Positions 48,017 through 56,112 of a stretch of DNA of 64,000 nt are shown here, piece after piece. A program made the translations under genes and the position numbers. Origin of the DNA: an uncultured Candidatus Rokubacteria bacterium (GTDB lineage Bacteria; Methylomirabilota; Methylomirabilia; Rokubacteriales; DASRDR01); the NCBI GenBank assembly GCA_963804185.1, contig CAWDPM010000018.1, positions 156,848 through 220,847 of the forward strand, read 5' to 3'. The notes under the pieces were generated by a model. The model did no database searches, had not been told where the DNA came from, and saw only the letters and a program-made list of their open reading frames with translations. Each line of letters begins with the position of its first letter. Position 1 is the stretch's first letter.

Positions 48017-48841
48017 GTGAGCGGGAACCCGGCGGCGGCGCTCCGCAATGGCGCGGGATGGGAGACCGTCCTCAGGGCGCCGGCCCAGGGTCAGCACGTC
48101 GCGCAGCTCTACAGCGAGCGGCGCTTTCTGTTCCATGCGGTCGGTGAGTTCGTCGGCGCCGGCCTTCGGCAGGGTGAGGCAGTCCTCCTCATCCTGACGC
48201 CCGCCCACCGTCACCCCATCGTGCGTCAGCTCGAGGGCCAGGGGTTCACGCTCGGGGATCTCTCGCGCCGCCGGCAGCTGACCATCCTCGATGCCACGCC
48301 GACCCTGACCGAGTTGATGGTCGGTGGTCTGCCGAATCGCGAGCGTTTCCAGCTGGTGATCGGCGGAGCGGTCGAGGCGGCGAGGGCCGCCGGATATCGG
48401 AAGCTACGCTCGTTCGGCGAGATGGTGGACGTGCTGCGTCGAACCAGCCTCACCGCCACGTTGCAGCTGGAGGCGCTGTGGAGCGAGCTGGTGCTGGCTC
48501 ATGGGATGGCGCTCCTGTGTGGCTATTCGATCGACAACTTCGATCCCCATACCTACCAGGGGATCCTGCAGGGCGTCAGCAGGGCGCACTCCCATCTCGT
48601 TCCCGTCGAGGACTACGCGCGCCTGGAGCGGGCGGTGGAACGGGCCTACGCGGAGGTCTTCGGTGTCAGGCGCGACGCAGGTTTTCTGCGTCGGGCGTTT
48701 CTCGCCCACTACCCGAGACCGGCCGTGATGCCCGACGCCGAGGCGGCCATTCTCGCCGCGAGGGAGTTCGTTCCGGCGGCGGCCAGCACGCTCCTCGAGC
48801 GGATCCGGCACCACTACCAGAGCTCCACGCCGACAGCCTGA
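48017..48841 (+). CDS. MEDS-domain protein (putative sensory/regulatory)
   Basis: HVAQLYSERRFLFHAVGEFVGAGLRQGEAVLLILTP resembles the N-terminal MEDS (DcmR sensory) domain. The identification is tentative. Confidence 0.45.
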   Translation: MSGNPAAALRNGAGWETVLRAPAQGQHVAQLYSERRFLFHAVGEFVGAGLRQGEAVLLILTPAHRHPIVRQLEGQGFTLGDLSRRRQLTILDATPTLTELMVGGLPNRERFQLVIGGAVEAARAAGYRKLRSFGEMVDVLRRTSLTATLQLEALWSELVLAHGMALLCGYSIDNFDPHTYQGILQGVSRAHSHLVPVEDYARLERAVERAYAEVFGVRRDAGFLRRAFLAHYPRPAVMPDAEAAILAAREFVPAAASTLLERIRHHYQSSTPTA

Positions 48842-49209
48842 CCGTCACGCGCCGATGCCGGGCCTGACCGCCTTAGGTCAGGCGACCCAGCGGACCCAGA
48901 TCCAGCTTCAGATCTTCCGGCGTGAGACCGAACCGCCGGGCCAGTGCGCGAATGGCCCTCTCCAGCCTCAGGAGAGCTCCGGCACGAGCCAGATCGGGCG
49001 CCCGGGGAATGCTGCACGGACGGCGGCGATGGCCTCGAGCTCGGCGCCCACCCGTTGGCGCTCGAGCGCGTCCCTTGCGCTCCGAGGCGCGTGACCCGGT
49101 TCACGAGAATCTCGCCGATCGCGATGCCGCTCACTTCCAGCGCGCGCACTGCATCGCGCCCCTCTTCCACGGCCAGTGAGGCCGCCGACGAGGAGGGTGT
49201 CGAGGATGA

Positions 49210-50193
49210 TCACTCGGACTCCTGCGCGCGCTCGAGCTTCAGACGGATGTTGACGAAGTTGTACGGCGGCCAGGGCCCCGTGTAGCGGAAGGTGAGCTTG
49301 TCGTAGAGTGCGCCAACCTCCTTGACCTTCGCGTCGAAGGCCGTTTCCTTGTCCCGGGAGACGAGGAAGGCCGCGTTCATGATCATCTTGTCGCCGATGG
49401 GCTTGTTGGCGCGGGCGGCCACCGACACGTCCCGCAGCTGCGCGAAGATGTCGGATGCGTACTGATCGGTCCGCGCCTGGAGGGCCGCCTCGATCTGCCG
49501 GCCATACTGCATGCGGGCGAAGTAGGTCGAGCCCGGGACGGCCGCGATCTCGTTCTTGAGCCGCCGGATGTCCTCGTCGTCGTTCTCGATCTCGCGGACC
49601 ATGACATCCCGGTCCCACAGGACCTTGAGGCCGAACTCCACCTTGTCCTGCATCTTGTCGAGCACGTCCCGGAAAGCGTCGTAGGCGCCCCGCAGGAGCT
49701 CCACGATGTCGTCGCGCGTCTTGAACACGGTTCCGAAAGACATCGGGATCACCGTGAAGCTCTTCATCACCGTCTCGTTGACTCGCTCGTGAGCGAGGAC
49801 GTTCTCGCGCGTCGCGTCCAGCACCTCTTCCGGGGTGTCCGAGATGACCGCGGCGATCTCCCGGAAGCCGACGGTCTGGACCTCGGTCGGCTCGCCACCG
49901 AGACTGATCGCCCCGAACCGACGCGGCTCGGCGCTCCGGATGATGCAGTAGACGTACTTGGCGCGGCTGTCGGTTGATCGGCTCACGGGAGCCCCACTGC
50001 CGGGGCCGGGACGCTGCCGGAGGGGCGCCCTCGAGACGGCGTCGCCCGTCGACACGTCCGCCGCCGGTGCGCGTTTTCGCTCCACGGGGAGCTTGACGGG
50101 CGTCGCGCGCTTCGCGGCCGTCGGGGGGGGCGAGGGGAGGGGCCGTGGCGTTACCGTGCGACGGGCCCTCGGTTTCGAGGGCTTCTTCTTCAC
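49210..50193 (-). CDS. GvpF/GvpL-family protein (gas vesicle protein F/L homologue) with basic Pro/Lys/Arg-rich N-terminal extension
   Basis: It aligns to GvpF/L along the whole domain: YVYCII vs LYLYGIF, ENVLAHERVNETVMKSFTVIPMSFGTVF, VEFGLKVLWD, MIMNAAFLVSRDKETAFDAKV..LTFRYTGPWPPYNFVNI. The GTG start is about 5 nt downstream of the receiver gene stop. The N-terminal approx. 110 aa are low-complexity and basic. Confidence 0.75.
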   Translation of the reverse strand: MKKKPSKPRARRTVTPRPLPSPPPTAAKRATPVKLPVERKRAPAADVSTGDAVSRAPLRQRPGPGSGAPVSRSTDSRAKYVYCIIRSAEPRRFGAISLGGEPTEVQTVGFREIAAVISDTPEEVLDATRENVLAHERVNETVMKSFTVIPMSFGTVFKTRDDIVELLRGAYDAFRDVLDKMQDKVEFGLKVLWDRDVMVREIENDDEDIRRLKNEIAAVPGSTYFARMQYGRQIEAALQARTDQYASDIFAQLRDVSVAARANKPIGDKMIMNAAFLVSRDKETAFDAKVKEVGALYDKLTFRYTGPWPPYNFVNIRLKLERAQESE

Positions 50194-50197
50194 GACG

Positions 50198-50653
50198 TCA
50201 CCTCTCGTTCTTCGGCCGGGACTTCGGCGAATCGAGGATACGCCGGATGGCGTCCAGGAGCTGATCCGGCAAACAAGGTTTCGTGATGACGAGATCGCAG
50301 CCGGCCTCGCGAGCCGTCTGCGCGTGCTCGGGCAGGGCATGCCCGGTCAGCACGACGACGGGGATCTTCTTCGTCCGGGGGTCGCGCTTCAGGCGCCGGG
50401 TGGCCTCCCAGCCGTCCATCACCGGCAGCGAGAGGTCCATGACGATGATGTCCGGCTTGAGCGCCTCGGCCTGGCGGATAGCGTCCGCGCCGTTCTCGGC
50501 CTCGGCGACTCGGAAGCCCGAAAACTTTAGGAAGAGCACGTACACCGTCCGGTTGTCCTGGACGTCGTCCACGATTAGGACGAGCGGCCCGTTCTCGTCG
50601 CCCGCCGCCACGTCCTTCCGCGTCCCGGGCTCGGCGGCGTTCTTCGTCATCAC
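50198..50653 (-). CDS. Single-domain response regulator (CheY-like receiver)
   Basis: LIVDDVQDNRTV...IIVMDLSLPVMDGWEA...KIPVVVLTGH. There is no output domain. The ATG overlaps the kinase stop (ATGA). Confidence 0.85.
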   Translation of the reverse strand: MMTKNAAEPGTRKDVAAGDENGPLVLIVDDVQDNRTVYVLFLKFSGFRVAEAENGADAIRQAEALKPDIIVMDLSLPVMDGWEATRRLKRDPRTKKIPVVVLTGHALPEHAQTAREAGCDLVITKPCLPDQLLDAIRRILDSPKSRPKNER

Positions 50654-52791
50654 CGCTTCGACCCGAGAGGGAGGATGAGGGTGAAGATGGAGCCCTGGCG
50701 GAGCTTGCTCTCGAGGGTGATCCGACCACCAAGCACCACCGCGAGGCGGCGGGAGATCGACAGTCCGAGACCAGTCCCGCCGGCCTCCCGCGTCAGAGTG
50801 GGATCGGCTTGAGAGAAGGCCTCGAAGATCCGTGCCTGATCCGCCTCCGCGATGCCGATGCCGGTGTCGGCGACCGCGATGGCCAACTCCCGGGTCGATC
50901 TCTGGTGCGTGCAGGAGACGGTCACCGAGCCGCGCGGCGTGAACTTGAGCGCGTTCGTGAGGAGGTTCAGGAGGATCTGCTTCACCTTCTGGCGGTCGCT
51001 CCGGATCGGGGCGAGTCCCGGCGGGACATTCGCGGTCACCGCCAGGTTCGAGCGTGCGATGAGCGGCTCGACCTCGCTCATGATCTCGTCGACCAGCTCG
51101 TTCAGCTTGATCGAGGAGAGCCGAACCGGCATCTTGCCGGCCTCGATCCGCGAGATGTCGAGGATCTCGTTGATCAGGGTCAGCAGGTGGCGGCCGTTGG
51201 CGTCGATGCGGGCCAGGGACTCCCGCTGGGTCGGACCCAGCGGGCCCGAGACGCCGCGGAGGAGCAGGCTCGTGTAGCCGAGGATGGCATTGAGGGGTGT
51301 CCGCACGTCGTGGGAGACGTTGGCCAGGAACTGGGACTTGGCCACCGACGCCTGCTCCAGCTCGATGGCCTGCCGGCGGAGGAGCTCGTTCTGGTGGGCG
51401 AGCGCCGATGTCGCCTCCTGGACCCGTCGCTCGAGCTGGGCCGAGGCCGCCTTAAGCTGCTCGTAGAGCTGCTCGCGCTCGATGGCCTCCGCCCGGTCGT
51501 GAAGGATGGTGACGATGGCCGACACCTCGGCGGAGTCGCCGTACACTGTACCCGACACGGCCTCCATCGGCACCTGCTGACCCGTCTTGGGGTCGACGAG
51601 GTTCACGCCGCCGTGGTACCGCGACTGTCCGGTCTTCCCGAAGAGGAGGTTCGACACGAACGAGGTGAAGTGCGCGTCGTTCGCCTGGACGCGCTGGGTC
51701 TCGGCCGGGCTCGCGTTCTCGGAGGTGGAGAAGAGGCGCTCGGCCGGAGTGTTCATCATCACGAGGTTGCCTGAGGGGTCGGTGACGAGGATGGGATCGG
51801 CGACCGAGTCGATGACGAGATCAAGCCGGTCGCGCTCGGCCCGAACTTCCGCCTCCGTGGCGCGCAGCTTCCGGTAGTTCTCCTGGATCTCCAGGGTCGC
51901 GCGCCGGAGGTCGGACACGTTCCGCAGGATGGACACGATGCCCATGCCAATGCGCGCGTCCCCGGCCGTCGTGCTGATCAGCTCGAAGAGCAGATCCGAC
52001 CCCTCGGTGGGGTCCACCAGCGCGAGCTCGTGGGGCGCCGACCGCAGGGGCTCCACGGCGCTTCGGCCGAGCGCCGACGAGAACAGGATGTTATTGATGG
52101 CCACCGCCCGGCGGCGGCCCTCGCTCTCGTCCTCCCGCGTGGCGAAGAGGCGCTCGGCTCGCGCGTTCGCGATGACCATGCGACCCTCGGTGTCGGTCAG
52201 CATGATCGGATCGGTCACCCGGTCGAGGACGCTGTGGAGAAGATCGCGCTCTCGGCGAAGGCGCCGCTCGGCCTCGACGCTGGTGGCACTCATCCGCGCG
52301 CGCGCGAGCCGGTACCCGAGATACTCGGATGCCCATGCGAGCTCGTGCCGGTTCGCGGTGACCGGGCGGACCAGCAGTAGCCCCGTCGGCGCCTCCACTT
52401 CGGCCTGAGTGCCATGGAGCGGCATGGCCAGGATGGGCGGACGCCCGGAGAAGAGTGGCCCCGTCGTCTCCCTGGACACCACGACGGGTTGCGACGCGGA
52501 CAGGACACGGACCAGGGGATGCTCCCGCGCCTCCAGGTCGAGCGTGAAGCCGTTGACGGCTTCATGCAGAGCGCCTCGGGCCGCCAGGTGAATCAGCCGT
52601 GTTCGATCCGCGTCCAGCACGAGACAGCGGCCCTCTCGCAAGCCCGCGTGTTCCGTGAGCCACTCGAGACATCGCCGGACCATCTCGGCCGCGTCTTCAC
52701 AGGCAAGGAGAAACTCCAGGAGCGCGAGCCGCTCCTCAGGTCCCGGCTCGGGCCGTCGCGCCGGTCGCGCCGACGCAGCGCCGCGCGTCAC
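50650..52791 (-). CDS. Cytoplasmic multi-sensor histidine kinase (GAF-like + two PAS + HisKA + HATPase_c)
   Basis: No TM helices. The PAS cores are LDRVTDPIMLTDTEGRMVIANARAERLF and IDSVADPILVTDPSGNLVMMNTPAERLF. The H-box is FLANVSHDVRTPLNAILGY. N, G1 and G2 boxes are present (LLNLLTNALKFT, DTGIGI, GGTGLGLSI). Confidence 0.85.
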   Translation of the reverse strand: MTRGAASARPARRPEPGPEERLALLEFLLACEDAAEMVRRCLEWLTEHAGLREGRCLVLDADRTRLIHLAARGALHEAVNGFTLDLEAREHPLVRVLSASQPVVVSRETTGPLFSGRPPILAMPLHGTQAEVEAPTGLLLVRPVTANRHELAWASEYLGYRLARARMSATSVEAERRLRRERDLLHSVLDRVTDPIMLTDTEGRMVIANARAERLFATREDESEGRRRAVAINNILFSSALGRSAVEPLRSAPHELALVDPTEGSDLLFELISTTAGDARIGMGIVSILRNVSDLRRATLEIQENYRKLRATEAEVRAERDRLDLVIDSVADPILVTDPSGNLVMMNTPAERLFSTSENASPAETQRVQANDAHFTSFVSNLLFGKTGQSRYHGGVNLVDPKTGQQVPMEAVSGTVYGDSAEVSAIVTILHDRAEAIEREQLYEQLKAASAQLERRVQEATSALAHQNELLRRQAIELEQASVAKSQFLANVSHDVRTPLNAILGYTSLLLRGVSGPLGPTQRESLARIDANGRHLLTLINEILDISRIEAGKMPVRLSSIKLNELVDEIMSEVEPLIARSNLAVTANVPPGLAPIRSDRQKVKQILLNLLTNALKFTPRGSVTVSCTHQRSTRELAIAVADTGIGIAEADQARIFEAFSQADPTLTREAGGTGLGLSISRRLAVVLGGRITLESKLRQGSIFTLILPLGSKR

Positions 52792-52794
52792 GGT

Positions 52795-53103
52795 CTAGGC
52801 GGGCTGGGGCGTCCGCCGCGCCCCACGGGGCCGCGTGGCGCCCGAGAGTGTGGCCGCGAGTTGCGCCCGGAGGGCGGCGTTCTCGGCGAGGACGGCTTCC
52901 TGGGAGATGACCGCGGCCGTCCGTGACACTGGTGGTAGCTGCGCTACCCACTCCGAGTACCTCAGGTAGGTGTCGATCGAGGCCACCACGGCTCGTGCCT
53001 CGACCGTGATCAGGTCGATGCCCATGAGAAGTCCCTTGTCGAGGACCCGGTCGAGCAGGTCGACAAGACCGGTGCCCCGCTGTCCCGCTAGATCGGTCCG
53101 CAC
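52795..53103 (-). CDS. GvpA/GvpJ-family small protein (gas vesicle structural protein homologue)
   Basis: LVDLLDRVLDKGLLMGIDLITVEARAVVASIDTYLRYSEWV matches the GvpA core (L.dvLdriLDkG.v..........iEaR.viASveTYLryaEa). The beta-hairpin region is about 9 aa shorter than in canonical GvpA. The 45-aa C-terminal extension is GvpJ-like. Its stop abuts the kinase start. Confidence 0.7.
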   Translation of the reverse strand: MRTDLAGQRGTGLVDLLDRVLDKGLLMGIDLITVEARAVVASIDTYLRYSEWVAQLPPVSRTAAVISQEAVLAENAALRAQLAATLSGATRPRGARRTPQPA

Positions 53104-53235
53104 GTTTCGGGCCCACCCCTTTCACGCCAGTAGCGACCCGATGAGCTGAGGGGCCCCGCCGAAGGGACCGCCGCCCGCCCCGAAGACCCGATGCGGTGCC
53201 AGGATAGTCGACGACCCCGCCCACCGCAAGGTCGC

Positions 53236-53266
53236 GGGTCAGGCGTGGGTCAGGCGGGACGGTCAG
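53236..53266. promoter_or_regulatory. Triple GGTCAG direct repeat in the 500-bp leader upstream of the gvpJ-like operon
   Basis: cGGGTCAGgcgtGGGTCAGgcgggacGGTCAG with 11-13 bp spacing, 130-165 bp upstream (operon sense) of the GvpA/J-like start. Confidence 0.25.
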
Positions 53267-53600
53267 CTGGGACATGCCGCCCAAGCAAGCGGCATCGATC
53301 GTGGGATCTGACCTTCGATGCGTGCAGGGAAGCGCGATCGAGGGCTCACCCTCAGAACTGAGTTTCGAGCGCTGGGGACCGCGTTCCAAGGCAAGAGTCG
53401 ACTCTCTTGGCGCGAGCTCCTCACGGTGGGGAACGCGATCTGGCCCAGCTGATCAAGGACGGCTGTCCCAGGGATGATTTGCGCCGGCGATCGGCGTCGT
53501 GCGCTGGAGAGGCCCCGTCCGTCGCGACGATATGGCGCGTGGACGACGCACATCATAGGCCCGTCGGACGTCGGAGTGCCCGGAAGAACTCGAGCCGATT

Positions 53601-54089
53601 TCAGCTCCTGGGCCGGGGTGTCTCGCGTCCGGGCGGCGTGGGACCGTGCCGCCGGGGGATCACGGAAATCTCGCCGCTCCGCTCGAGGATGGCTTCTTCG
53701 ATGTCCTCCACGCGCGCCACCCCGTGCCGCTCGCGGGCCGAGGCCAGGATGTCGTCCATGTCGACGCGCTCACGCGCCATGTCCTCGTCCCGCGGCTTCC
53801 CGTTCCGGAAGAGGACCAGCGGCACGCCATCGATCAGGGCCTCGAGGCGCGGTGACCGTCGCTTGACCAGCGACAGCCCGATGTCCAGGAGGACCAGGGT
53901 GAAGACGATGAGTGCGGCGTTCGTGAGGGAGTAGTCGTTTCCGACCAGGCCGTTCTGGATGGCCTCGCTGATGATCAAGAGCAGCACCAGGTCGAAGGTC
54001 GTGGTGTGAGCGAGTGTCCGCTTGCCAGCCACCCGGAACAGTCCGAGCAGGAGGACGTACACGATCCCGGCCCGCACGACGGACTCCAT
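53601..54089 (-). CDS. DUF421 (YetF-like) membrane protein
   Basis: N-terminal TM pair, then the conserved DUF421 region LVLLLIISEAIQNGLVGNDYSLTNAALIVFTLVLLD and a C-terminal soluble domain. Confidence 0.65.
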   Translation of the reverse strand: MESVVRAGIVYVLLLGLFRVAGKRTLAHTTTFDLVLLLIISEAIQNGLVGNDYSLTNAALIVFTLVLLDIGLSLVKRRSPRLEALIDGVPLVLFRNGKPRDEDMARERVDMDDILASARERHGVARVEDIEEAILERSGEISVIPRRHGPTPPGRETPRPRS

Positions 54090-54611: not shown

Positions 54612-54762
54612 CGCAGCTCCTCTTTGGTGCAAGAGGGCTGCCACGGGCCCGCCCTGTCCGCGGTCACGACATGCTGTCGACTGCAACCCCGAAGTTGGCA
54701 ACGCCCCGGACTGGCCTGGCGGCTGGGGGGCACGCCCCTTGCTACCGTCTCGTCGGGTTGAG

Positions 54763-56112
54763 ATGAATCGTCGGATCTTCGGCCTCGAAAGCGAGTACGG
54801 CCTTACTTGCACGCATGAGGGCCGGCCTGTCCTGGCCCCCGATATACTCGCGCGATTCCTGTTCGAGGAAGTCGTCCCGGGTCCGAGGTATCCGAATGTC
54901 TTCCTGGAGAACGGCGGCCGGCTGTACGTGGATACCGGCTTCCATCCTGAGTACGCCACGCCGGAATGCGACGACCTCATCGAGCTCGTGGCATACGACC
55001 GGGCGGGCGAGCGGCTCGTCGAGGACCTCGTGTGGCGGGCCGATCGGCGACTCAAGAACGACGGGATCACTGGGCGAATCCAGGCGTTCAAGAACAACAC
55101 GGACTCCGCCGGCAACTCCTACGGCTGTCACGAGAACTACCTCGTGTCGCGTGGCACGCCCTTCCCCCGTCTGGTGGAGGCGCTGATTCCCTTCCTTGTC
55201 AGCCGTCAGGCCTTCGCGGGCGCCGGCAAGATCCATCGCGGCCGGCGCGGCGTGGAGTACCACCTGAGCCAGCGCGCCGACCATATCGTCGACGAGGTGT
55301 CGGGAACCACGGTGTCCGGCCGACCCATCATCGACACGCGCGACGAGCCGCACGCGGACGGCGGGCGGTTTCGCCGCCTCCACGTGATCGTCGGCGACTC
55401 CAACATGTCCGACGTGGCGACCTACCTCAAGGTCGGCACCACTGCCCTCGTGCTCGATATGGTCGAGGACGGGTTCTTCGACCAGGACGTCGGGCTCGAG
55501 TCCGCCGTCGACGCCCTGCACACCATCTCGAGGGATCCTTCGCTTCGCGAGCCGGTGCGGCTCAAGGACGGTCGCGCCTACACGGCCCTCGAGATCCAGC
55601 TCGCCTACCTGGAGAGGTGCCAGGCCCACGAGCACCGGGTCGGGGGCGACGCGACCTCGCGGGCAGTGCTGAGGCGGTGGAGCGACGTCCTGGCGGGGCT
55701 CGCGCAGGACCCGCCGGCGGCGCAGCGCGAGGTGGACTGGGCCATCAAGCGCTCCCTGATCGAGCGCTACATGACGAAGCATGCCTGCTCGCTCGAGGAT
55801 CCCCGTGTCGCCCAGCTGGACCTCCAGTACCACGACATCCGCGCGGGACGCGGTCTCTACCATCTCCTTGCCCGGCACGGCGAGGTCGGGACGCTTGTCC
55901 GCGACGAAGTTGTCGAGCGGGCGAAGCACCGCCCGCCCCAGACCACTCGGGCGCGCCTGCGTGGCGACTTCGTCCGCCGCGCGAACCTTCTGGGGTGGGA
56001 GTACCAGGTGGATTGGGCCTACGTGAGGACGCTGGGTCCGGACAGCGAGACCATCCTCTGTCCAGACCCCTTCCTTGCCCACGACGAGCGAGTGGAGCGG
56101 CTAGCGGCCTGA
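54763..56112 (+). CDS. pafA: Pup-protein ligase PafA (PafA/Dop family, carboxylate-amine ligase fold)
   Basis: MNRRIFGLESEYGLTC...YPNVFLENGGRLYVDTGFHPEYATPECD...AFKNNTDSAGNSYGCHENYLV closely tracks the PafA N-terminal and catalytic regions. The Dop deamidase alternative is not fully excluded. Confidence 0.8.
   Translation: MNRRIFGLESEYGLTCTHEGRPVLAPDILARFLFEEVVPGPRYPNVFLENGGRLYVDTGFHPEYATPECDDLIELVAYDRAGERLVEDLVWRADRRLKNDGITGRIQAFKNNTDSAGNSYGCHENYLVSRGTPFPRLVEALIPFLVSRQAFAGAGKIHRGRRGVEYHLSQRADHIVDEVSGTTVSGRPIIDTRDEPHADGGRFRRLHVIVGDSNMSDVATYLKVGTTALVLDMVEDGFFDQDVGLESAVDALHTISRDPSLREPVRLKDGRAYTALEIQLAYLERCQAHEHRVGGDATSRAVLRRWSDVLAGLAQDPPAAQREVDWAIKRSLIERYMTKHACSLEDPRVAQLDLQYHDIRAGRGLYHLLARHGEVGTLVRDEVVERAKHRPPQTTRARLRGDFVRRANLLGWEYQVDWAYVRTLGPDSETILCPDPFLAHDERVERLAA

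Follow-up and report, generated by a model that had tools for sequence, protein, structure and literature searches.

Does the gas-vesicle gene gvpF of an uncultured Candidatus Rokubacteria bacterium encode a long basic tail ahead of its conserved domain, and what would such a tail do? The gene lies on the minus strand of a 64,000-nucleotide stretch of contig CAWDPM010000018.1, the whole of which is referred to here as the window. An initial annotation had described about 110 K/R/P/A-rich residues in front of the GvpL_GvpF domain. Such a stretch was borne out in the minus-strand open reading frame (ORF) ending at 49210, but it was shorter than claimed. We placed the gvpF N-terminal extension (VKKKPSKPRARRTVTPRPLPSPPPTAAKRATPVKLPVERKRAPAADVSTGDAVSRAPLRQRPGPGSGAPVSRSTDSRAK) at 49957–50193 on the minus strand, a length of 79 codons, because translation starts at the GTG at 50193, the Pfam domain begins at residue 79, and third-position GC content (GC3) is low in the overlap further upstream. 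The interval 49867–50193 that had been assigned to the extension takes in ~30 codons of the domain. Comparison with related sequences indicates that the extension is almost certainly translated from GTG 50193, and the basic tail is a trait of the GvpF paralogue found behind gvpA and a two-component system in soil metagenome-assembled genomes (MAGs) labeled Rokubacteria/Methylomirabilota, Vicinamibacterales, and Myxococcota.

The product from GTG 50193 is 327 amino acids long, and Pfam PF06386 (GvpL_GvpF) covers residues 79–315 with a match of 255.8 bits against a cut-off of 23.6. The core, a GvpL_GvpF domain with the two-domain GvpF fold according to Pfam, Foldseek, and AlphaFold2, occupies 49210–49956 on the minus strand, stop codon included. 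The GTG start codon (50191–50193, minus strand) is located 4 nt past the TGA stop of a response-regulator gene (50198–50200), and a Shine-Dalgarno (SD)-like GAGAGG (50201–50206, minus strand) lies 7 nt upstream of it. The ORF stays open as far as an ATG at 50340, which was ruled out as the gvpF start, as it overlaps the response-regulator gene, is not conserved, and falls where GC3 is 0.55–0.75. This is the value found upstream of 50193, compared to 0.80–0.90 in the extension and 0.85–1.0 in the core. The claim that the domain has no nearer ATG or GTG proved false, as the span 49984–50085 of the extension (minus strand) holds three in-frame GTGs, at 50085, 50055, and 49986, corresponding to codons 37, 47, and 70.

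Homologues of the window protein were readily found. A protein search returned >100 of them at 56–97% identity, nearly all with 40–90 basic low-complexity residues followed by an almost invariant SR(A/G)KYVYC junction. Scanning at one genome per species gave 80 loci, all of them in MAGs, labeled Rokubacteria/Methylomirabilota (closest, 80%), Vicinamibacterales/Acidobacteriota, and Myxococcales. The extension statistics refer to 68 usable species-level loci, with start codons taken from the DNA. The first letter of database proteins, M or V, was discarded as evidence for an ATG, since it is unreliable and L081 and L082 start with GTG. In seven loci the automatic choice of start lay too far upstream and was replaced by hand, and loci that looked frameshifted or had an unclear start or motif were omitted (e.g., L030, L068, L072, and L074). 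In L068 (7512–9451), the frame upstream of gvpF continues from the C-terminal end of a gvpA-like sequence, pointing to either a fusion or a frameshift, and in L074 the extension appears frameshifted. Close comparisons were made with L081 and L082, the nearest relatives with intact clusters (88–89% identical to the window), and with L083, an independent JGI contig that aligns to the window over 2,528 nt at 97.7% identity, interrupted by one 1-nt gap.

Across the 68 loci, the extension was 36–102 residues long (median of 61.5) and began with ATG in 60 loci and GTG in eight, with an SD-like motif before the start in 56. No other ATG, GTG, or TTG was present between the start and the domain in 17 of the 68, and in L081 and L082 codon 1 was the sole in-frame ATG, GTG, TTG, or CTG over 80–81 extension codons. 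The start context GAGAGG-TGA-CGTC-GTG was the same in the window, L081, L082, and L083, while the three internal GTGs of the window were shared only with L083 and were absent from L081 and L082. The third codon position had the highest GC content in 62 of the 68 extensions. Among the closest pairs listed, the ratio of nonsynonymous to synonymous substitution rates (dN/dS) of the extension was mostly ~0.1–0.6, rising to 0.8 for L081 versus L082; the core gave 0.02–0.08 between close pairs, and the extension ran at 5–10 times the core value. Translation of the extension is thus supported by the lack of internal starts in L081, L082, and the 17 loci, by the start codon and SD-like site at its far end, and by dN/dS below 1. 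This agrees with the initial annotation, which had considered the extension to be really translated, and orthologues starting right before YVYCII were looked for and not found.

It could instead be argued that the extension is an untranslated 5′ leader and that the protein is made from an internal GTG, such as that at 49986, 10 residues before YVYCII. The window offers three in-frame GTGs, a weak GGGG lies 6–9 nt upstream of GTG 49986, and high-GC DNA can remain open by chance, the other frames having only 0.78 stops per 100 codons. We regard this explanation as highly improbable, as the internal GTGs are missing from the two nearest intact relatives, 17 loci have no internal start at all, and the conserved start codon with its SD-like site lies at the far end. 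Furthermore, in-frame dN/dS is below 1, and the 5.5-fold enrichment in Lys and the absence of F, Y, W, and C described below hold for the coding frame only. No promoter-like sites were found in the region of the gvpF extension, and the one terminator-like site inside gvpF was on the wrong strand and within chance, giving no support for an internal start. Rfam returned no matches at gathering threshold over 48500–53700, so no RNA element was detected in or around the extension.

The composition of the tail was then compared with a null built from the nucleotide frequencies of the extensions themselves. The window tail has a net charge of +16 and an isoelectric point (pI) of 12, contains 15 P, 12 R, 11 A, 8 K, and 8 S, and has no aromatics; the window GvpF core has a net charge of −6 and a pI of 5.2. 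Over the 68 loci, the net charge of the tail ranged from +7 to +22 (median +13), and its composition was 19.5% A, 15.3% R, 11.7% P, 10.9% K, 8.4% S, 7.9% G, and 6.6% T, these seven residues making up ~80% of the total. Lys accounted for ~11% of tail residues versus 2.0% expected from the null (5.5 times), and F, Y, W, and C were absent from all 4,469 residues versus ~3% expected. His, Leu, and Gln were also depleted relative to the null. The five other reading frames of the extensions contained 0.9% Lys and 17.7% hydrophobic residues. Because of the Lys excess, the absence of F/Y/W/C, and the dissimilarity of the other frames, the tail composition is under selection and does not simply follow from GC content. 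What is selected is a positively charged, Lys/Arg/Pro/Ala/Ser-based composition free of aromatic and bulky hydrophobic residues, and not a sequence or a length; among orthologues, composition and charge were kept, while sequence and length were not. The most basic part of the tail was its first 18 residues, with 31–42% K/R. Among 48 genes around the relatives' clusters, the N-terminus of the window gvpF type was the most basic and least hydrophobic, at +12 to +16 versus a median of +1.5.

Structural modeling was consistent with the disorder that had been predicted for the extension. AlphaFold2, run with a 33-sequence alignment, gave block-averaged confidence values (pLDDT) of 37–52 over residues 1–70, and in DSSP assignments on the same model the first secondary structure element is the beta-strand that begins at residue 79. 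The tail shows the marks of intrinsic disorder in its low model confidence, in a composition kept while sequence and length vary, and in its depletion of order-promoting residues. It had also been likened to histone H1. A loose compositional resemblance stands, but no tandem repeats were detected in the tail with TRF, Arg outnumbers Lys, and PAKKA-type and SPKK-type motifs were each found in 7 of 68 loci. AT-hook motifs were confined to RGRP in one of the 68 loci and GRP in four, with none in the window tail. The tail is not a signal peptide, since no Tat motif and no run of four or more hydrophobic residues were found in any of the 68 tails; the maximum Kyte-Doolittle value over a 15-residue window was 0.24 in the window tail and ≤0.78 in the others. 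No peptide motif was common to the tails of all clades. Short motifs were clade-specific: one Rokubacteria clade had RVIRE, acidobacterial clades had LERV(K/R)xP and SEKxVQ, and the window's clade had RKR. Longer motifs, SRVIRE(T/M)PPR, GKLERV(K/R)xP, ERRxSEKxVQ, and REKxxSRR, were observed inside the variable tails of loci including L003, L011, L012, L017, L018, L022, L025, L026, L032, L036, and L042, and may be linear binding motifs.

A core-only search against 1.84 billion cluster representatives was used to compare the extension with the wider GvpF/L family. Representatives with ≥48% identity to the core had 19–113 residues before the domain, mostly basic. The more distant ones, ~50 full-length representatives at 33–43% identity, had a median of ~6 residues before the motif, in agreement with the earlier claim that canonical GvpF/L proteins start near it; the exceptions were P0171 (40 residues), P0197 (101), and P0203 (205). 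The comparative evidence supports the reading of a translated, basic, disordered region that is absent from canonical GvpF/L proteins. With Foldseek, the AlphaFold2 core model matched 6l5d and 4qsg at target-normalized TM-scores of 0.71–0.81. The NCBIfam equivalog models for GvpF (NF052351) and GvpL (NF045778) scored 104.4 and 105.8, below their cut-offs of 350 and 200, respectively. Going by these profile and fold comparisons, the window GvpF is a divergent member of the GvpL/GvpF superfamily. Its identity as GvpF is given by the Pfam and fold matches, the A-...-F-G gene order in relatives, and the binding of GvpA and GvpG by Halobacterium GvpF (PMC9501494). The core was 57–85% identical between MAGs assigned to different phyla, and the C-terminal YTGPWPPYNFVNIRLKLE was invariant in 33 aligned sequences. 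Such strong conservation may reflect tight constraint, a lateral spread of the cluster between soil phyla, or a combination of the two. One homologue, protein P0106, carries a ~40-residue internal duplication in the GvpF N-terminal domain (alignment A1, columns 151–190).

The genomic context of gvpF was reconstructed from relatives with intact clusters. In the nearest of these, the order is gvpJ-like, gvpA, PAS histidine kinase, receiver-only regulator, gvpF with the extension, gvpG, two-domain arsA-like ATPase, gvpL/F, gvpS-like, gvpL/F, and gvpK, followed by a MEDS-domain gene on the opposite strand (intact spans, L081 5623–14427 and L082 5689–14710). A gas-vesicle context with gvpF beside gvpA and gvpG was observed in L081, L082, and L001. 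The segment from gvpA through the kinase and regulator to gvpF was kept in most of the 80 loci. Downstream of gvpF, gvpG was present in at least 58, arsA in at least 56, and gvpK in at least 39 loci, counts that are bounded by the flank length retrieved. The start of gvpG overlaps the gvpF stop, and GvpG is the sole acidic protein of the cluster, with a net charge of −11 in L081 and a median of −10 across loci. No gvpC or gvpO was found among the called genes of L081 and L082; L081 also had no gvpN, but has the two-domain ArsA-like ATPase. Arg-rich tails were observed in L081 at the C-termini of GvpA and GvpJ and at the N-terminus of GvpS, and L081 GvpL1 has a net charge of +36 with a 25-residue basic N-terminus. 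The last gvpL/F gene of L082 was called as a 457-residue product that also matches AAA_3.

In the window, the receiver-only response regulator (50198–50653, minus strand; Pfam Response_reg) lies directly upstream of gvpF, a position that is conserved, and its gene is probably translationally coupled to gvpF. It is preceded by a PAS-containing histidine kinase (50650–52791, minus strand; Pfam HisKA, HATPase_c, and PAS), which was matched in 78 of the 80 loci and lies upstream of gvpF in most of them. The kinase and regulator, embedded between gvpA and gvpF, were kept across MAGs labeled as three phyla (L001–L082). In a Vicinamibacterales variant, a hybrid kinase is followed by gvpA, which adjoins gvpF on its upstream side, and the tail is retained. 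L083 has a 1-nt insertion at ~position 298 (window ~50206), in the last codons of the response regulator, which alters the C-terminus of that protein and extends its called gene over the gvpF start. In the literature searched, we found neither the two-component system within the cluster nor the tail of GvpF described, and nothing relevant on an N-terminal extension or disorder in GvpF or on gas vesicles, whether in Rokubacteria, Methylomirabilota, or Vicinamibacterales or in combination with a histidine kinase.

Unlike those of its relatives, the cluster of the window has been scarred by deletions, whose junctions were mapped by nucleotide alignment (blastn) to L081 and L082. At junction 53024/53023, the first ~26 codons of gvpJ are joined to gvpA from codon ~36 onward, with ~400 bp missing relative to L081 and L082. 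The result is a chimeric, in-frame gvpJ/gvpA ORF of 102 amino acids (52795–53103, minus strand) that has lost one beta-strand of the GvpA hairpin. It scored below the NCBIfam GvpA cut-offs with a 9-residue gap relative to the profile, both of which are explained by the removal of that strand. Downstream of gvpF, only the first 12 codons of gvpG remain (VIILDTLLVGGL; 49177–49213, minus strand), their start overlapping the gvpF stop and the blastn match ending at L081 position 10023. Junction 49177/49176 lost ~0.97 kb relative to L081, comprising gvpG after those 12 codons and the 5′ part of arsA. Between this junction and the next lies an internal fragment of the arsA-like ATPase gene (48975–49176, minus strand), with 83% nucleotide identity to L081 10994–11196. 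At junction 48975/48971, ~3.1 kb was lost relative to L081, comprising the remainder of arsA, the two gvpL/F genes, gvpS, and the bulk of gvpK, of which the last 34 codons persist as a 3′ remnant (48876–48977, minus strand; 94% identity to residues 40–73 of L081 GvpK by tblastn). The spacing from gvpF to the MEDS-domain gene is 369 bp in L083, as in the window, so the deletions are real and older than the split between the two. The genes left intact in the cluster are exactly the histidine kinase, the response regulator, and gvpF. The other 60 kb of the window contained no second gvp cluster; one may exist elsewhere in the genome. A Pup-ligase gene (54739–56112, plus strand) flanks the cluster, as in L082, and an extra DUF421/YetF gene (53601–54089, minus strand) lies between it and the gvp remnant.

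Substitutions between the window and L083 were used to examine selection on gvpF after the decay of its cluster. In the core, 12 changes were synonymous and five nonsynonymous (P = 5e-5, binomial test of neutrality); in the tail, the numbers were seven and three (P = 0.009). With so few nonsynonymous changes, gvpF, tail included, is still constrained. In the window, the tail is either vestigial or has a function that does not need gvpG–gvpK. As the kinase, regulator, and gvpF are intact and gvpF is under purifying selection despite the lost gvp genes, the tailed GvpF, PAS kinase, and receiver-only regulator could form a signaling/assembly module independent of gas vesicles, an idea we consider doubtful. 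If it were true, the tail would be the effector end of the module, acting for instance through binding to nucleic acid or polyanions, or through condensate formation controlled by the regulator.

As for the function of the tail, we favor, with some reserve, a reading in which it is a real, translated, disordered, polycationic family trait that works as an electrostatic arm on a GvpA-binding assembly factor. The tail would serve as a flexible arm or tether on GvpF, and would capture or concentrate GvpF on a polyanionic partner during vesicle nucleation. Candidate partners are GvpG, which is the only acidic cluster protein and whose gene overlaps the end of gvpF; nucleic acid or polyphosphate; and an anionic lipid surface. 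Several observations weigh against this reading. These partners are candidates only, and tail charge did not covary with GvpG charge over 49 loci (rho = −0.13, p = 0.39). Several other cluster proteins have Arg-rich tails, which could make the GvpF tail part of a lineage-wide compositional habit. Support for translation is comparative and every carrier is an uncultured MAG, while the three in-frame GTGs of the window could yield shorter isoforms. Lastly, sequence constraint on the tail is weak, given an extension dN/dS of 0.5–0.8 in the window's own clade. This last value, the Arg-rich tails on neighboring proteins, and a hypervariable sequence and length (36–102 residues) would also suit a tail that is translated but neutral, a spacer left by migration of the start codon that keeps coupling with the upstream gene and owes its composition to GC-rich codons, as R, P, A, and G are encoded by GC-rich DNA anyway. 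We consider a neutral spacer unlikely, because Lys, encoded by AAR codons, stands at 11% against the 2% expected, aromatics and Cys are absent, net charge does not fall below +7, and dN/dS is below 1 in most close pairs listed. The depletion of His, Leu, and Gln and the purifying selection seen on comparison with L083 (P = 0.009) also speak against it, as does the retention of the tail with either a response regulator or gvpA upstream (L034, L062, and L064).

The gene neighborhood raises a different role, in which the tail is a docking or regulatory site for the phosphorylated receiver-only regulator and the PAS kinase gates vesicle assembly post-translationally. A parallel is FliM, whose disordered N-terminus is bound by CheY-P. 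The response regulator lacks an output domain, its gene is probably translationally coupled to gvpF, the order of kinase, regulator, and gvpF is kept in most loci, and these three alone are intact in the decayed cluster. Regulator docking nonetheless seems quite unlikely, since the tails share no cross-clade peptide motif, having only the clade-specific RVIRE, LERVKxP, and SEKxVQ, and since the tail is also kept in the Vicinamibacterales variant, where the kinase is a hybrid and gvpA adjoins gvpF. We hold a similarly low opinion of a role suggested in the initial annotation, in which the tail would bind nucleic acid or form condensates; it would then anchor GvpF, or a vesicle in formation, to the nucleoid or to RNA without other Gvp proteins. 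A charge density of ~+20 per 100 residues in a Pro-rich, non-hydrophobic tail is compatible with such binding, and gvpF has been kept under selection without gvpG–gvpK in the window lineage. On the other side, motifs of the AT-hook, SPKK, and PAKKA types occur in only 1, 7, and 7 of the 68 loci, repeats and aromatic or other "sticker" residues are absent, and the window genome may have a second gvp cluster.

Taken alone, this is a disordered tail appended to a known protein, with candidate partners only; the embedded two-component system, and the retention of gvpF under selection in a cluster stripped of most structural and accessory genes, make it somewhat more noteworthy. GvpF/L proteins are essential and mechanistically obscure nucleation factors of gas vesicles, which have been engineered as acoustic reporters. 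The tailed GvpF is widespread in uncultured soil phyla, in bacteria never shown to make vesicles, and a broad subfamily with a selected polycationic arm and a dedicated two-component system points to an unstudied form of recruitment or regulation of a GvpA chaperone. The decayed cluster of the window provides a natural experiment on the role of GvpF and its tail beyond vesicle formation.

Among known systems, the closest structural counterparts are the cyanobacterial GvpF proteins of Anabaena (6L5D) and Microcystis (4QSG), which share the two-domain fold (Foldseek E of 2e-16, target-normalized TM-score of 0.81) and the Pfam family with the window GvpF at only 24% identity (phmmer E of 2e-19). 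Unlike the window GvpF, they have no basic extension. With chains of 250–253 residues, and with query residue 97 aligned to chain residue 32, these structures have no room for one; the domain starts within ~15 residues of the chain N-terminus. Basic low-complexity tails are known from the mycobacterial HupB/Hlp and Pseudomonas AlgP, whose Lys/Ala/Pro-rich tails are termed histone H1-like. The GvpF tail is likewise basic, Pro/Ala-rich, and predicted to be disordered, but it lacks tandem repeats, has more Arg than Lys, and shows PAKKA-type motifs in only 7 of 68 loci. It also sits N-terminally on an assembly chaperone, and not on a DNA-binding fold.

A role for GvpL/GvpF in vesicle formation is known only for Halobacterium and cyanobacteria, and in Halobacterium GvpF binds GvpA and makes contact with GvpG and GvpL as well (PMC9501494). 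The Halobacterium salinarum GvpF and GvpL are homologous accessory proteins of the nucleation complex, and gvpF in the relatives of the window likewise lies beside gvpA and gvpG. No long polycationic N-terminal tail has been described for the Halobacterium proteins, in contrast to the window-type GvpF, and regulation there is through GvpD/E, whereas window-type clusters carry the genes of a two-component system. A two-domain ArsA homologue has been reported inside gvp clusters, one of which is acidobacterial and also has J, K, and M along with two L/F genes (PMC2963123, Castillo & Saier 2010). ArsA is shared with the relatives of the window; that paper describes neither a two-component system nor a GvpF extension. 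In Streptomyces coelicolor, also a soil organism, the cluster order is gvpOAFG-JLSK (PMC9501494). Its A-F-G ... J/L/S/K core resembles the J-A-[HK-RR]-F-G-[arsA]-L-S-L-K order of the intact relatives, where HK is the histidine kinase and RR the receiver-only regulator. The relatives' clusters differ from that of Streptomyces in having this kinase and regulator between gvpA and gvpF, an arsA-like ATPase gene after gvpG, no gvpO seen, and a GvpF with a basic tail.

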